Of a DNA stretch of 64,000 bases, positions 35,265-43,560 are shown in pieces. Every line of letters starts with the position of its first letter. The stretch's first letter is position 1. Source of the DNA: Mobula hypostoma (taxonomy: Eukaryota); the NCBI RefSeq assembly GCF_963921235.1, contig NC_086097.1, positions 111,354,001 through 111,418,000 on the forward strand. Direction: 5' to 3'. The notes below the pieces were generated by a model, which saw only the letters and a program-made list of their open reading frames with translations, did no database searches and had not been told where the DNA came from. The translations under genes and the position numbers were made by a program.

Positions 35265-36574
35265 CTCACACAAAATGCCGGAGGAGCTCAACAAGTCAGG
35301 CAGTATCAATGGAAATGAATAAACAGTAAACATTTGGGCCAAGACCCTTCATCAGGACTGGAAAGGAAGGGGGAAGAAGTCAGAATAAGGTGGTGGGGAA
35401 AGGGGAGGGAGTACAAGCTAGAAGGTGATGAATTCAGAATCTGGGAGGTGACTGGAGAAGAAGGAATCTGACAGGAGAGGAGAATAGACCATGGGTGAAA
35501 AGGAAGAGAGGGGCAGCACCAGAGGGAGGTGATAGGCAAGAGAAAAAAAGAGGGGGGGGGGGAGGGAGAGAGAAATGAAGAAGGGAATGGGGAGTTGGAA
35601 GAATTACCAGAAGTTGGAGAAATCAATGTTCTGCCACTAGGTTGGAGGTTACCCAGACAGAATGAGGTACTGCTCCTCCAACCTGAGAATGGGTAGAGGC
35701 AGCAATGGACTGACATGTTGAAATGCAAATAGGGATTGGAATTAAAATAGTTGGCCACGGGGAAATATTGCTCTTTGCAGAGGGAGTAAAGATGCTCGAC
35801 AAAAGAGTCCCTCAATCCATGTTGGGCCTCACCAATGTAGTACAGGCCGCATTGGGAGTACCCAGTACAGTAGACGATCCCACCAGATTCACCAGTGAAG
35901 TTTTGTTTCACCTGGAAGGACTGACTGGGGCCCTGAATGGAGGTGAGGAAGGAGGTGAACGGGCAGGTGTAGCACTTTTTGCACTTGCTGGGTTAAGTGC
36001 CAAGAGGGAGATGAAGGGAGATTAGGGGGGTGGAACAAATTGACAAGGGAATCGCAGAAGAAGCAGGAAGTGGAGAGTAGTGGGGAAGAAAGAATGATAG
36101 GCCGGATCGCAGAGGTTCATGGGATGGTAGGTGAGAACAAGAAGAACTCTATCCCTATTAATGTGGCAGGAAGATGGGGCAAGGCCAGATGTCTGAGAAA
36201 TGGAGATGTGGGTGAGGGCAGCATCAATGATGGAGGAAGGAGAAACCATTCTTCAAAGGAGGACATATCTGATACCCTGAAAAGAAAAGCCTCATCCTGG
36301 GAACAAATGCAACAAAGACAAAGCAACTGAGAAAAGGGTGGGAAGTGGTATAGTCAGATAGTCATGGAAGTTGGTAGGTTTGTAAAAGAGATCAGTACAT
36401 GGTTTGTCACCAGAGATGGAGACAGATTACATTGATAACAGCAGTGCTGTTTCAGGCACCCGTGCTGAGCTCACCAGTTTCATAAACTTTGCCTCCAGCT
36501 TCCACCCTGCCCTTAAATTCACTCGGTCCATTTCTGACATCTCTCTCCATTTTCTCTATCTCTGTCTCCATCTC
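35265..36574 (-). mobile_element. Penelope-like element, 5'-truncated with an inverted 5' segment
   Basis: GIY-YIG-like GIVYC..SQCGLYYIGEA...EH (ORF 35306..35911). The RT piece YIDN...FINFASSFHPALKFT lies on + at 36427-36574. Confidence 0.85.
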
Positions 36575-36660
36575 CAGGGGTCAGTGCCAGGCCCACTGCT
36601 ATTTGTCAATCACTCAGATGGGGCTGTACAAGGCATGGTTAGTAAGTTTACAGATGACAC

Positions 36661-37599
36661 TGTGACGAAAGAGGGTTACAAAGAGTACACATAGATTAAG
36701 ATGTTAACTGTCCTGTGCTGGCACCAGTGGGATCAACAGTTGATCTGCCACCTGTCTTCAGGAGAAAGAGAGATAAGGAAGACAATGGAGCAGCATTTGG
36801 AAATGTTAATGAAGAGACGGGAGAGTTTAACGGAAGGAGACACGGTCTGAGAACTGTCAAGATCGGCTCCTTTTTGAACCCTGAACTGTTTGAAGTGTGA
36901 TGGACAGGCGATACCCCAGCAGGGGGATAAAAAGGAACAGGTTCGCTAAGGCAGGACACACACGACACCACGAGGTAACGAGACCCTGGAAACGGTGCGC
37001 CTTCCACAAGTCGGTGGGAGTTTTTGGAGGGCTGGTCGCGGGACCAAGCCATAGACGCACAGGGTGGAAAGGTACGATCGGCGGGAACCTGGTGTGTGTC
37101 CGCCCTTGCCTGGGTGCCAGGTTCACTGCAGAGGAACGATCGTATCTGAAATGGAGGGGTCACAGTTGGTGACCTCAGAAGACATTACAAAGGGCTCGCC
37201 CGAAAGCTGACTGCGAAGAATATCGAAGGTCTGTGTGGAAGCCGTTTTGAATAATCATTCGCTTTCGCTCTGTCTCTCCTTCCCCCCCTCCCCGCCCCCC
37301 CCGTCCACCGCCACAGCAGTGATTACTGTGAACTGAACTGAACTCAATTGAACTGAACTTTGCGTCACTTTGAAACTGGTCATTTACCCCTAGACGACGA
37401 TAGAGCTTGATTGATCCTATTATCCTAGTTCTGTGTACATGTGTGTTTATCATTGCTGAATTGTTGCATTTATATCCTTACTATTAGAGTACTGTGTTGC
37501 TTGTTTCTTTAATAAAACTTTCTTAGTTCCAGTAATCCAGACTCCAACTGACTGATCCATTTCTGCTGGTTTGGCAACCCAGTTACGGGGTACGTAACA
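36661..37599 (+). repeat. 5' LTR (939 bp)
   Basis: TGTGACG...CGTAACA. TATA-like GATAAAA near 36926, AATAAA at 37511. Direct repeat of 40673-41602. Confidence 0.95.
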
Positions 37600-37603
37600 T
37601 AAG

Positions 37604-37621
37604 TGGGGGCTCGTCCGGGAT
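37604..37621 (+). promoter_or_regulatory. Primer-binding site complementary to the tRNA-Pro 3' end
   Basis: TGGGGGCTCGTCCGGGAT, 4 nt after the 5' LTR; this is the standard tRNA-Pro PBS sequence. Confidence 0.93.
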
Positions 37622-37697
37622 TTTGAATACTAAATTTGGGACGGAGTAAATTGATTGGGTTAAAATTCCCGAAAGAAAGAAAAGGCAAACAGCAGAA

Positions 37698-39803
37698 ATG
37701 GAGATTGAGGAATTTCTAAAGGTGCTGACCTTGGAGGCATTAGAGGATGCCAGGAAAGCGGAATTGGCAGCTGTGGCCAAACGATTGAACCTTGTTAAGG
37801 GGAAGTCGACAATGAGGAGAGAGGAGATGCACAGAGCTATCATAGAGCACTATGTATCTAAAGGTGTGTTTCCCCAAGGGGAGCTGGAGGTGGTGCAGAT
37901 TGAAAAACTGAGACTCGAGCACGAGTTCCGGGTACGGCAGCTAGAACACGAAGAGAAGCAGTTAGAAAGGCAGGAGAAAGAGAAAGAGAGGCAGTTGGAG
38001 CGAGAAGAGAGGCAGAGGGAAAGGGAATTTGAGCTGGAGAAGTTAAAGATGATGGCAGAGCAGGGGCCTATGCTGAACCAAGGTGGAGGGTTCAAGGCGA
38101 CCCAGGAGGTTAGGCTGGTTCCCCCATTTGACGATACCGATGTGGATCGGTACTTTCTCCATTTCGAAAAAGTTGCTACAAGTCAGGACTGGCCGAGGGA
38201 TAAGTGGGCTGTTTTGCTTCAGAGTGTACTTAAAGGAAAAGCCCAACAAGCTTACTCAGCTTTGTCCGCGGAAAATGTCCAGAGGTATGAGGTGGTGAAA
38301 GAGGCCATCCTCAGGATTTATGAGTTGGTCCCGGAGGCATACCGGCAGAGGTTCCAGAATGAGAGGAAGCAGTGGGACCGCACGTATTTAGAGTTTGCCC
38401 GTGAGATGCAGACATATTGTGAGCGTTGGTGCGCCTTGAAGGGGGTAGATGGGGATTATGACAGACTGCTACAGCTGATCCTGATTGAGCAGTTTAAAGG
38501 TTGTGTCCCTGAGGGTATGAGACCCTACCTAGATGAGAAAGAGGCAGCCACGTTAGCCGCAACTGCTAAGTTAGCGGATGAGTACACGTTGACGCATAGA
38601 ATGAAGTTTGTCCCGAGTAAAGGCCACCAGAAGGGTAGTCAGGACGGTGGGGAGAGTCCGCCAGAGAAGTCAGAAAATAAGCCAGGGACTAGTGAGAAGG
38701 ATAAGGTAGACCGGGAGCAGTCTGGTAGGAAGTCTCCTGGGGTCGTCTGTTATAATTGTGGGAAAGTCGGACACTTTGCGTCCAGGTGCTTTGCCCCAAA
38801 GAAGGAGACGGGGAAAGGAAAAACGGCGATTTTGACTGGCTGTATCGAGCTGGTAAACGAACTGCTAGGAGAGGAAAGGTCTGCCAAAGTTCAGGAAGGG
38901 CGCAAGAGGTTTATCTCGGCCGGATTGGTGTCGATGAAGGAGGGGTTAAACCCAGTTCCAGTGCGGATCTGGAGAGACACGGGAGCGTGTCAGTCATTGA
39001 TATTGAAGAGTGTATTAGAGTTCAGCTCAGAGACCCAGACTGGGGAGGTCAAAGTCAAAGGTATTGGGGAAGGGACAGAGGCAGTCCCTTTGCACCAGAT
39101 ACACCTACAAAGCAACTTGGTCTCTGGACCAGTCACGATCGGGGTGAGGCCCGAATTACCGATAAAAGGCGTGGAAGTCTTGCTCGGTAATGACCTCGCT
39201 GGAGGAATTGTGTTCTCGACAGTGAGATTGACAGGTCAGCCTGCCAGCATTGAGGCCCCGCCCACGGACTCACAGGTTCATCCTGGGACTGCCGAAGTAA
39301 ATTTAGCTGAGACGTTTCTACCAGCCTTGTACCAGGGGGAAGTAGAAAGTGAAAAGAAGGAGTGTAGTGAAACAAGAGGTAGTGAGGGAGCTGAAACCGA
39401 CTTAGCATTAGAAAAGAAGGACTTTATACAGGCGCAGGAGCGAGACGAGGAAACAGCTCGCTGTGAAACAGAGTTAGGAAGAGAACCAGTAGGCTATGGT
39501 GTGAAGGGGGAGGTGATAAGGAAGGAAGGGAGACCAAGTACCACAGATAAGGAATGGGGGATGGTGCCAAAAATCTCTTGGGGTGAGATTTTTAACCTGG
39601 CCCACAAGGTACCCCTCGGTGGACATTTTGAGGTGCTGAAGGAAACAGTTGGCGGAATCATGAAAGAGGTTTACTGGCTGCACAGGAGGAAGGATGTTAT
39701 TGATTATGGCAGACGCGAACTGAGACGGTCTCAGGCTTTTGATATGCTAACAAACCTAGTCGGTGTTAGCGCGGAAATCAACGAAGCTAGGGTCCCCCGA
39801 TGA
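37698..39803 (+). CDS. Gag (coiled coil, SCAN/capsid-like region, CCHC knuckle), aspartic protease and truncated integrase N-terminus; 701 aa
   Basis: Uninterrupted ORF. Motifs: VPPFDDTDVDRYFLHFEKVA..W..W; YELVPEAYRQRF; CYNCGKVGHFASRC; protease RDTGACQSL...LLGNDL; integrase-like LAHKVPLGGH...YW..RKDV with the two Cys absent. Confidence 0.9.
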   Translation: MEIEEFLKVLTLEALEDARKAELAAVAKRLNLVKGKSTMRREEMHRAIIEHYVSKGVFPQGELEVVQIEKLRLEHEFRVRQLEHEEKQLERQEKEKERQLEREERQREREFELEKLKMMAEQGPMLNQGGGFKATQEVRLVPPFDDTDVDRYFLHFEKVATSQDWPRDKWAVLLQSVLKGKAQQAYSALSAENVQRYEVVKEAILRIYELVPEAYRQRFQNERKQWDRTYLEFAREMQTYCERWCALKGVDGDYDRLLQLILIEQFKGCVPEGMRPYLDEKEAATLAATAKLADEYTLTHRMKFVPSKGHQKGSQDGGESPPEKSENKPGTSEKDKVDREQSGRKSPGVVCYNCGKVGHFASRCFAPKKETGKGKTAILTGCIELVNELLGEERSAKVQEGRKRFISAGLVSMKEGLNPVPVRIWRDTGACQSLILKSVLEFSSETQTGEVKVKGIGEGTEAVPLHQIHLQSNLVSGPVTIGVRPELPIKGVEVLLGNDLAGGIVFSTVRLTGQPASIEAPPTDSQVHPGTAEVNLAETFLPALYQGEVESEKKECSETRGSEGAETDLALEKKDFIQAQERDEETARCETELGREPVGYGVKGEVIRKEGRPSTTDKEWGMVPKISWGEIFNLAHKVPLGGHFEVLKETVGGIMKEVYWLHRRKDVIDYGRRELRRSQAFDMLTNLVGVSAEINEARVPR

Positions 39804-40555
39804 AAAAAAAAAATTTTTTTGTAAAGATGAGGATGGTATCCACCAGATGGGAGAAGGCTATTGTTTTGGCCAGCTCTGCTGATAAGGTCTCTCCCTTAAT
39901 CCCCGAACAAAGTGACTCTTTAGGAGAATTAATTAAACGGCTCGCACACCTGTGTTTGATTGTCCTGAGGCGATGCAAAGAACTGGGACGTTGGGTGGTG
40001 TTTGTCATGCGAGGTCAGCCTAGTGAGCAACACCCCTATAGAATGAGTAATTCAGTGACGAAAGGGCTAACGAACACATAAGTGTATATTGGCGATGTAA
40101 TACGGCTGTCTGAAGCCAGCTTGATAGTGAACCTTAAAAAAAATGAGTTCGGCCACACGAAGGTCACTTATCTGGGGATTGTGGTAACACAGGGGCAGCT
40201 GGCAGCGATGCAAGCTAAGGTGCGGGCTATCTCTGACATCCCAACCCCGACAGACAAGAGGGCCCTCAGAAGGCTCTTGGAGATGGTGAGGTACTGTAGG
40301 AAGTTTTGCAATAACTCTGCGGTTACTACCCCTCCCCCTCCTACTAAGCCCTTGCGAGAGAAAACTAAGTCGGATGGGACGACCCTTGTTATCGTGGTCC
40401 GGGACGAAACCCAATGAGAGGTTATACTGATCGCAATTCATCAGTGTTTTCGGCCACTATGAAGTTTGCTAAGTTGGAGCCTGGTTTAGGGGATTATTAA
40501 TAACACATATAAAAGGAACAGAAAATGTGATTGCTGGCTGTCTGTCAGGTGTTGA
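39800..40555 (+). pseudogene. Heavily deleted pol remnant (RT and RNase H fragments)
   Basis: QHPYRM | NSVTKGLTNT*VYIGDV | RLSEASLIVNLKKNEFGHTKVTYLG...YCRKFC. RNase H end HIKGTENVIAGCLS near 40507-40548. Confidence 0.85.
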
Positions 40556-40660
40556 CAACTTAAAATTCTCTCTATTAGCCAAATAGCTGATGAAGATGTA
40601 TATTTGTGTGTATCTAATAATGTATTCATGTTTGTAATTTTTACCCCGGTAAAAATCCTT

Positions 40661-40672
40661 AAAGGTGAGGGG
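40661..40672 (+). promoter_or_regulatory. Polypurine tract
   Basis: AAAGGTGAGGGG immediately before the TG of the 3' LTR. Confidence 0.85.
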
Positions 40673-41602
40673 TGTGACGAAAGAGGGTTACAAAGAGTAC
40701 ACATAGATTAAGATGTTAACTGTCCTGTGCTGGCACCAGTGGGATCAACAGTTGATCTGCCACCTGTCTTCAGGAGAAAGAGAGATAAGGAAGACAATGG
40801 AGCAGCATTTGGAAATGTTAATGAAGAGACGGGAGAGTTTAACGGAAGGAGACACGGGCTGAGAGCTGTCAAGATGGCTCCTTTTTGAACCCTGAACTGT
40901 TTGAAGTGTGATGGACAGGCGATACCCCAGCAGGGGGATAAAAAGGGACAGGTTCGCTAAGGCAGGACACACACAACACTACGAGGTAACGAGACCCTGG
41001 AAGCGGTGCGCCTTCCACAAGTCGGTGGGAGTTTTTGGAGGGCTGGTCGCGGGACCAAGCCATAGACACACAGGGTGGAAAGGTACGATCGGCGGGAACC
41101 TGGTGTGTGTCCGCCCTTGCCTGGGTGCCAGGTTCACTGCAGAGGAACGATCGTATCTGAAATGGAGGGGTCACAGTTGGTGACCTCAGAAGACATTACA
41201 AAGGGCTCGCCCAAAAGCTGACTGCGAAGAATATCGAAGGTCTGTGTGGAAGCCGTTTTGAATATTCATTCGCTTTCGCTCTCTCTCTCCTCCCCCCCCC
41301 CCGCCATCCACCGCCACGGCAGTGATTACTGTGAACTGAACTGAACTCAATTGAACTGAACTTTGCGTCACTTTGAAACTGGTCATTTACCCCTAGATGA
41401 CGATAGAGCTTGATTGATCCTATTATCCTAGTTCTGTGTACATGTGTGTTTATCATTGCTGAATTGTTGCATTTATATCCTTACTATTAGAGTACTGTGT
41501 TGTTTATTTCTTTAATAAAACTTTCTTAGTTCCAGTAATCCAGACTCCAACTGAGTGATCCATTTCTGCTGGTTTGGCAACCCAGTTACGGGGTACGTAA
41601 CA
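40673..41602 (+). repeat. 3' LTR (930 bp)
   Basis: Copy of the 5' LTR with scattered substitutions and an indel in the C-rich tract. Confidence 0.95.
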
Positions 41603-43560
41603 ACACTAAAAGAGGTGATGTTTCTGACAGGGAAAACATTTATCAAGATTTACAGAGGTATCTTCATCAGCTGGGTAAGAGGCCCAAGGAATGGCAAATG
41701 GAGTTTAATTCTGAAAGTTATGAGGTGTTGCATTTTGAGAAAACAAATCAGAGTGGGACATTCAGTCAAAAGTAGACCCCTGGGTAACATTTTAGAATAG
41801 AGGGATCTAGGAGTACAAGTACATGATTTCCTGAGGGTGGCATTGCAAGTAGACAGTGGCTTTTGGCATATTGCCTTCATCAGTCAGGGTATTGAGTTTA
41901 GAAGGTGGGATGTCACGTTGCAGCTGTACAATACACTGGAGAGGTTGGATTTGGAATTTGTGTAAATGTTTGGGAACTCTGCAATACAGAAGGTGGTGTT
42001 GGAAAGTGTAAAGAGGATGTTACCAGCATTCGAGAGACTGAGTAATGGTAAACATTTGAGCAGGATGAGGCTGTTTTCAGTTGAGAATGAGGGTTAATCT
42101 TATAAAGGTGTATAAAATCTGAGGGACATAGCTAGGGTGAATACACTACCCCCCATCCCGCCAGGGTTGGGGAAATCAAGAACTTGAGGGCACAGGCTTA
42201 AGGTGGGTGGCGATTACCGACTGCGTTGCCTCTGATCTGGGTCGACATTTACGTGCCGGGCAGTACCTAATTAATTAGCTTGTTTATTTCGGCTTTTTTC
42301 TTAAAGATGTGCTGGGTGCGTTCCGACTACCGCTACACCGCTGCATTCTTCACGGCAATGTATCGGTCCGCGGCCTGGAGGTTGGGGACCACTGACAAAG
42401 GAGTGTCAGTGGGTGCTGTATACTTGGATTTTCAGATGGCCTTTGACAAGGTGCCACACATGAGACTGCTTAACAAGATAAGAGCCCATGGTATTACAGG
42501 AAAGATACTAGCATAGATAGAGCATTGGCTGAGTGGTAGGAGGCAAAGAGTGAGACTAAAGGGGGCTTTATTCTGGTTGGCTGTTGGTGATGAGTGGCAT
42601 TCTGCAAGGTTTGGTGTTGGACTGCTTCTTTTTATGCTGTGTCAATGATTTGGACGACGGAATTGAAGGCTTTGTGGCTAGGTTTGTGTATGATATGAAG
42701 ATAGGTTGAGGGATGGGTCGCGTTGAGGAAGCAGGGAGACTGCAGAAGGACTTAAGACAGATTAGGAGAATGGGCAAAGAAGTGGCAGATGGAATAAAGT
42801 ATCAGGAAGTGTATGTTGGTGCATTTTGGCAGAAGGAACAAATATATAGACTTTTTTTTAAACTGGCATAAAATTTAAAAATCTGGGATGTGAAGATACT
42901 TGAGAGCCCTTATGCAGGTTGAGGCTGTGGTGAGGAAGGCAAAAGTCATGTTAGCATTCATTTTGAGAGACAAGAATATAAAAGCAAGGATGTAATGCTG
43001 AGGTTTTATTAGGCACTGACAAGGCCTCACTTGAGTATTGTGAGCCATTTTGAGCTTCTTATCTAAGACAGGATGTGCTGACATTGGAGAAGGTTCAGAG
43101 GAGGTTCATGAGAATGAAAAGTTTAACACACTAGGAGGGTTTGATGGCTCTGGGCCTTTACTCATTGGAATTTAGAAGGCTGGGGGGAGTACCTTATTGA
43201 AACTATTGAATGCTGATAGCGTGGATGTGGAGAGGACATCTTCCAACAGTGGAGGAGTACAGGACCTGACGGCACATCTTCAGAAGAGGGACGACCATTT
43301 AAAACAGAGATGAAGAGGAATTTCTTTAGTCAGAGGGTGGCGAAACTCTGGAATTCGTTGTTCCAGGCAGCTGTGGAGGCCAAGTAATTGGGTTCATTTA
43401 AGGCGGAGGTTGACAGGTTGTTGACTAGTTAGGGTGTGAAAGATTATGGGGAGAAGGCAGAAGAGTGGGGTTGAGGGGGAAATGGATCAGCCATGATGAA
43501 ATGGCAGAACAATTACAATAGGCGAATACCTTAATTCTGCTCCTATATTTTATGGTCTTA
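41603..43560 (+). mobile_element. Degenerate CR1 RT fragments; the first continues from 36575-36660 across the LTR element
   Basis: SKFTDDT|K split by the LTR element; YLDFQMAFDKVPHMRLL at ~42420. Confidence 0.8.
42203..42394. mobile_element. hAT-Charlie-type non-autonomous element, one end only (second copy)
   Basis: Same ~170 bp sequence ending GGTTGGGGACCACTG. Confidence 0.75.

Follow-up and report, generated by a model that had tools for sequence, protein, structure and literature searches.

Gmr1-like elements of the Ty3/gypsy group (Metaviridae) are described as encoding a SCAN-like capsid followed by protease (PR), integrase (IN) and reverse transcriptase-RNase H (RT-RH), in this particular order (bioRxiv 10.1101/2025.03.03.638093, PMC4131045). 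Among non-autonomous LTR elements, the mouse IAP 1-delta-1 carries an internal deletion that created one gag-pol fusion ORF; it needs proteins provided in trans, and the fusion is reported to act in cis (PMC6466679). In wheat, the gypsy subfamilies Fatima 1.4 and 1.5 have ORFs for gag and protease only, and it has been proposed that they trade these products for RT and INT from a sister subfamily (bioRxiv 10.1101/363192). The non-autonomous LTR elements of plants known as TR-GAG have a single ORF, which encodes Gag, and their transposition has been shown (PMC8704663).

We have analysed a 64-kb stretch of DNA of the devil ray Mobula hypostoma (hereafter, the window), which contains one LTR element of this kind. 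It shares with Gmr1-like elements the SCAN-like capsid, TG..CA LTRs, a primer-binding site (PBS), a polypurine tract (PPT), a short target-site duplication (TSD) and the order PR-IN-RT-RH; the kinship seen in the RT tree described below is with IN-before-RT polyproteins, no named Gmr1 reference being included in that tree. The order had been recognised in a preliminary description of this DNA and was recovered when the remnants were mapped on the polyproteins P0125 and P0122 (numbers with P designate the proteins compared). Autonomous Gmr1-like elements possess an intact DDE integrase, YxDD RT and RNase H, whereas the ray family has none of the three intact and is unable to move alone.

The likeness to IAP 1-delta-1 lies in the way of working only: the ray family also has an in-frame fusion ORF, whole in five gene models of 939-1,004 aa. 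In contrast with the mouse element, nothing is missing from its gag and protease, and it underwent at least six in-frame cuts, which were made in steps and are common to two host species. Furthermore, IAP 1-delta-1 is of class II retroviral origin, which the ray family is not, as its IN precedes RT and its Gag is of the SCAN type. Fatima is a plant element, and the accessible part of its description mentions neither an open frame over pol remnants nor intermediates. TR-GAG elements encode Gag only, whereas the ray family retains the protease and ~400 codons of pol remnant. The ray family would work like these three systems and is a member of none of them. The family was not described in the literature searched on Gmr1, on non-autonomous gypsy elements in vertebrates and fish, on Mobula LTRs and on sharks and rays; repeat libraries (Repbase/Dfam) and subscription journals were outside this scope, and a library entry may exist.

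We consider it very likely that the locus is a recent-looking insertion from a non-autonomous Gmr1-like family of devil rays, itself old and present in high copy number, which produces capsid and protease and depends on borrowed RT and integrase.

Architecture of the insertion

The element spans positions 36,661-41,602 of the window (4,942 bp). It had initially been delimited at 37,698-40,555, which is correct for the coding part but not for the full element, whose ends lie further out on both sides. The features identified are listed below, where J1 to J5 denote deletion joints.

36,657-36,660, + strand: left TSD, 4 bp, ACAC, equal to 41,603-41,606
36,661-37,599, + strand: 5' LTR, 939 bp, TG..CA, with AATAAA at 37,511
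37,604-37,621, + strand: PBS for tRNA-Pro, 4 bp past the 5' LTR, identical in 18 of 18 positions to the MLV PBS probe
37,698-39,803, + strand: ORF1, 701 aa, comprising Gag, protease, linker, integrase zinc-finger remnant and a fused integrase C-terminal piece
38,331-38,600, + strand: SCAN-like capsid C-terminal domain, aa 212-301 (Pfam PF02023, E 3e-11)
38,745-38,789, + strand: CCHC zinc knuckle, aa 350-364 (Pfam PF00098, E 3e-6)
38,976-39,197, + strand: aspartic protease with intact DTG (starting at 38,976); weak Pfam RVP match, aa 427-500, E 0.09
39,600-39,716, + strand: integrase zinc-finger remnant, HH present, CC gone, ending at J1
39,793-39,821, + strand: frame break in a homopolymer-rich stretch, ending ORF1; tblastn of P0005 switches frame here and P0011 ends likewise
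39,833-40,045, + strand: integrase-RT linker and RT N-terminus, up to J2
40,046-40,330, + strand: RT palm end and thumb/connection remnant, ~95 codons, with YIGD at 40,085, containing J3
40,375-40,500, + strand: connection/RNase H remnant with J4, followed by the off-frame J5; family ORF stop at 40,498-40,500
40,491-40,547, + strand: RNase H C-terminal tip in another frame, mostly past the family stop (tblastn, 74% over 19 aa to P0125)
40,661-40,672, + strand: PPT, 11 of 12 purines, adjoining the 3' LTR
40,673-41,602, + strand: 3' LTR, 930 bp, TG..CA
41,603-41,606, + strand: right TSD, ACAC, repeating the left TSD

The LTRs, PBS, PPT and TSD, which had been called clean, were all found intact, the PBS being identical to the MLV tRNA-Pro PBS probe sequence (PMC4587795). 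The two LTRs are 98% alike, with 17 substitutions (12 transitions and 5 transversions) over 930 columns and 9 gap columns; the resulting K2P distance of 0.0185 applies to this single insertion only. No second copy of the element occurs within the 64-kb window. Other fairly young dispersed repeat pairs, 89-96% identical, are present there (21,418-22,086/33,913-34,570; 5,984-6,105/60,693-60,814; 29,849-30,052/31,672-31,885). The sequences flanking the element (36,386-36,660 and 41,603-41,775) read co-linearly across the TSD, which is located at an FxDD-like motif. They resemble a decayed, old LINE-like RT fragment and gave no match in Pfam and PDB searches.

The layout is that of a single gag-pol frame, and the element has no room for env. 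Translation of ORF1 agreed with the stop-free frame of 701 aa reported earlier, and the Gag part of it consists of coiled-coil, capsid and zinc knuckle. The Glu/Arg-rich coiled-coil repeat of Gag (37,914-38,040) differs greatly in length among copies. Compared with its sister copies, the window copy has small in-frame deletions in ORF1 at 37,892, ~39,450 and ~39,540 (~12, 6 and 2 codons), and read depth falls at 39,381-39,654, the region where this copy diverges most.

Past the protease, the integrase zinc finger keeps its HH pair (39,600-39,626), and both the CC pair and the integrase core are absent, exactly as first noticed; a weak match to Pfam Integrase_H2C2 covers aa 623-670 of ORF1 (E 0.02). 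The RT landmarks QHPYRM, SNSVTKG, YIGDV and IRLSE do share one frame, including the stop marked among them in the preliminary description, and the reported change of the catalytic YIDD to YIGD was located at 40,085. The statement that only the RNase H tip is left, on the other hand, does not hold, as the ~95-codon RT piece and 25 codons of RNase H (40,390-40,464) are also present. No Pfam match to rve, RVT_1 or RNase H was obtained in the frames of the window or in P0005 and P0246, and the pol remnant appears to be catalytically dead.

The frame of the window copy is broken three times (39,793-39,821, a stop at 40,079-81 and ~40,372-74), in no case at a large joint. The stop is private to this copy, as nearly all read depth differs from it in four of four runs. 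The window copy has decayed at these three places, at least at one of them after insertion.

Deletion joints and their distribution among copies

The joints were mapped against full-length IN-before-RT polyproteins (P0125 from sawfish, and P0122) and refined with the ray fragments P0013, P0015 and P0264. At J1 (39,716/39,717) ~290 integrase codons are missing, at J2 (40,045/40,046) ~128 codons of RT fingers and palm, at J3 (40,099/40,100) 18 codons just after YIGD, and at J4 (40,389/40,390) ~86 codons of RNase H. All four cuts are in frame, and their flanks share the frame in the window DNA itself. J5, a cut after 40,464, shifts the frame 11 codons ahead of the family stop; the anticipated deletion lengths in multiples of three are thus a property of the four large cuts J1-J4 and not of J5. 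Altogether, ~520 codons were deleted, corresponding to the integrase core, the RT fingers and catalytic region, and most of RNase H.

As had been supposed, the deletions are not private to the locus but common to many copies, their joints being shared by gene models of two Mobula species and by read contigs. The best protein matches are Mobula gene models (73-85% identity) that contain SCAN and CCHC domains and are without rve or RT. The J1 signature was found in 19 of the 410 proteins compared (17 from M. hypostoma and two from M. birostris), a count that, like those given next, rests on proteins and not on their DNA and is taken from gene models, which favour long ORFs. Eleven of the 19 end at the same family stop. 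Five are a single ORF starting from the Gag Met, are 95-98% alike and come from different loci, with different LOC identifiers and contigs of four sizes; their range of 939-1,004 aa is due to the varying length of the coiled-coil repeat. Eight end early, with end points shared between P0001 and P0002, between P0004 and P0014, and between P0011 and ORF1 of the window, which suggests that mobility may extend to copies whose remnant is closed.

Read contigs were available from four runs representing four organisms (4 of 24 listed runs), and in each of the four runs they covered all 30 bins of the element. Among the 32 contig pieces listed, gap-free pieces span J2 and J3 in three of the four runs (X1 record 6, X5 record 24 and X15 record 15) and J1 in one (X15 record 14); J4 is bridged by none of these 32, with 55,173 further pieces beyond them. 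Contigs leaving the LTR end into unlike flanks number 129 in X1 and 15 in X15 (agreement 0.35 and 0.43), counts that take in solo LTRs and any relative with the same LTR. The DTG and CCHC motifs are intact in most copies. An artefact or private decay is ruled out by joints common to many copies, and segmental duplication by the TSD and the unlike flanks. A protein search at 50% clustering returned, at E under 1e-30, only two representatives, P0263 and P0004, both from Mobula, and a metagenome scan with P0262 gave 105 pattern matches and no confirmed locus.

Two trees were reconstructed, with 24 and 20 rows, namely those from which the segment could be excised by motif. In the RT tree the family is monophyletic (100/99), with P0263 as sister (100/97) and the intact RT of P0264 outside. 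Measured from the autonomous node, the family lies at a branch length of ~0.32 compared with 0.06-0.09 for P0264, i.e., its RT evolved about four times faster; the RT stem branch measures 0.21. The family is monophyletic in the Gag-PR tree too (99/98), where M. hypostoma copies that are nearly identical form a recent burst (branches 0-0.016).

In P0263, from M. birostris, the cuts J1, J2 and probably J4 are present within a single frame, but the 18 residues that J3 removed from the family are still there, and so is a stretch of 7 residues that the family lacks after J1. This protein is an intermediate with fewer cuts, and the deletions accrued in steps. One X1 contig, in which 7 letters at J3 are replaced by 40 (net 33), would be another in-frame intermediate, known from this single contig.

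The element ORFs P0005, P0008, P0248, P0252 and P0264 bear RefSeq names of host-gene isoforms (MACC1, PISD, UBE2G2, PPM1Lb and HSPB1-associated protein 1), which reflect either LTR-driven chimeric transcripts or mis-annotation. Models named in this way, after MACC1, PISD, PPM1Lb and UBE2G2, could also be expected of a domesticated host Gag-protease gene, or of a host-favoured dominant-negative restriction element, that was spread by duplication. However, the near-identical LTR pair, the TSD, the 129 unlike flanks, the recent burst and the broken ORF of the window copy all speak for mobility and not for a fixed gene, and we give hardly any credence to this explanation.

Constraint on Gag, protease and the pol remnant

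Constraint was judged from protein identities between copies, not from dN/dS. Between P0005 and distant family members, the capsid is 92% identical, followed by the RT piece (85-88%), the protease (84-87%), the linker (76-81%) and the IN zinc finger (73-74%), whereas autonomous elements compared among themselves show the reversed order (RT 76%, IN zinc finger 69%, capsid 63% and PR 52%). This reversal against the autonomous yardstick points to a capsid and protease that are held and remnants that are relaxed; on the basis of these comparisons we are confident that selection maintains both the capsid and the protease.

A pure RNA parasite similar to ETn or VL30, for which the helper makes all proteins and Gag-PR is merely undecayed so far, would be consistent with the differences of the window copy in Gag-PR, eight non-synonymous and three synonymous, which look neutral. 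It is at odds with 92% identity in the capsid against 73% in the IN zinc finger across subfamilies, the opposite of the autonomous yardstick, and with DTG and CCHC intact in most copies, and is in our view very improbable. Taken together, the read variants give 21 non-synonymous and 11 synonymous differences against a neutral ratio of 2.4-2.9 (32 of the 40 listed rows, after removal of six non-coding rows and of two at break sites; 478 further rows lie beyond this listing). They are mostly peculiar to the window copy and so provide no family-wide dN/dS, and their neutral-like pattern is as expected for decay after insertion.

The preliminary description had also postulated some selection to stay translatable. 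In favour of this, the remnant of ~400 codons is open across two subfamilies and two species: for distances of 0.15-0.35, neutral evolution of 409 codons should have left three to eight stops, and none is present (chance 0.046-0.0002). Four of the five large cuts after the protease are in frame (p 0.045 with a null of 1/3), or six of seven together with two small cuts (p 0.007). On the opposite side, J1 and J2 each join two residues identical in the reference (RR and RM), and the frame could thereby persist mechanically, without selection. Given these in-phase microhomologies at two joints and the eight of 19 models that end early, selection for an open frame is likely, not proven. We favour, with moderate assurance, the reading that the remnant stays stop-free because translation to near the 3' end would help in cis, through RNA stability or packaging.

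The same non-autonomous family could, alternatively, have an open remnant frame as a mere by-product of template switches at in-phase microhomologies, with only Gag-protease under selection. The RR and RM overlaps and the early ends, some at shared points, agree with such an origin, as do the p of only 0.045 for the large cuts and the remnant without a confident fold: the AlphaFold model of P0262 (35-row alignment) had a mean pLDDT of 43 and no usable fold. This by-product is nonetheless difficult to reconcile with zero stops in ~400 codons of two subfamilies and two species, with the absence, at protein level, of any such overlap at J3 and the small cuts, and with the sole off-frame cut being situated just 11 codons before the stop. 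It is a possible explanation, albeit not one that we would expect to prevail.

Within the family, conservation of the RT piece is on a par with that of the protease, and the remnant may consequently not be uniformly neutral. One could go further and see the remnant, mainly its RT thumb/connection piece, as a working adaptor that binds helper RT or integrase and brings it into the particle, in line with 85-88% identity of this piece versus 73-81% of the neighbouring remnants and with thumb helices (residues ~271-290) as the only part of the P0262 model with pLDDT above 70. The difference in conservation against IN zinc finger plus linker is, however, not significant (Fisher p 0.05-0.09), the stem of the family in the RT tree is a long branch, and the low-confidence model leans on RT homologues in the alignment. 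An adaptor function is quite improbable.

Overall, the original proposal that the deleted form transposes as a family of its own, making capsid and protease, is upheld by the shared joints, the dispersed insertions and the stronger constraint on capsid and PR than on the pol remnants.

A putative helper and implications

LTR elements require RT and IN for reverse transcription and integration. If the family borrows both, as we think it does, the RNA of the element would be translated into a Gag-protease-remnant protein, and the family Gag would nucleate a particle on its own RNA and co-assemble with the Gag-Pol of an autonomous Gmr1-like relative. The RT of this helper would then use the tRNA-Pro PBS and the PPT, and its integrase would make the 4-bp TSD. 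The nearest relatives bearing IN or RT, P0015 and P0264, are single gene-model fragments, 56-85% identical per domain, and represent candidate traces of the autonomous helper. A search for proteins over 1,227 aa did not reveal a close autonomous polyprotein (best 43%).

As Gmr1-like Gag and Pol are made from one frame, the helper would be short of free Gag, a shortage known from copia and Tf1. The family might even act as a partner that supplies surplus Gag-protease to the helper, in effect a genomic subgenomic RNA, with translation of the remnant to near the PPT securing its own packaging; we regard this extension as rather unlikely.

Nine of the 12 stingray models examined (P0018, P0020, P0021, P0023, P0026, P0027, P0038, P0045 and P0052, from Hypanus sabinus and Hemitrygon akajei) consist of Gag-protease and a tail that is not pol and in which the end of the capsid is partly duplicated. 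They appear to be another pol-less Gmr1-like family, derived independently, and, if this is true, would show that such a sharing of tasks arose a second time in vertebrates.

Taken by itself, the copy in the window is ordinary, and its kind of element is already known. The family is a useful test case on account of its vertebrate Gmr1 background, of an in-frame erosion in several steps from which an intermediate survives, and of the parallel pol-less family of stingrays. For annotation, the finding is a warning that dozens of ray gene models, some of them named after host genes, are this Gmr1-like element.

The cis preference of LTR elements has been called unsettled (PMC13558583), and the question whether non-autonomous LTR elements must keep translating a dead pol, as reported for mouse IAP 1-delta-1, bears on it. 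In this vertebrate case one can still follow, step by step, how an autonomous LTR element became a hitchhiker with capsid and protease only, from the intact fragments through P0263 to the two later subfamilies, and these steps, together with the many copies, make the question of translation through a dead pol testable with public assemblies.
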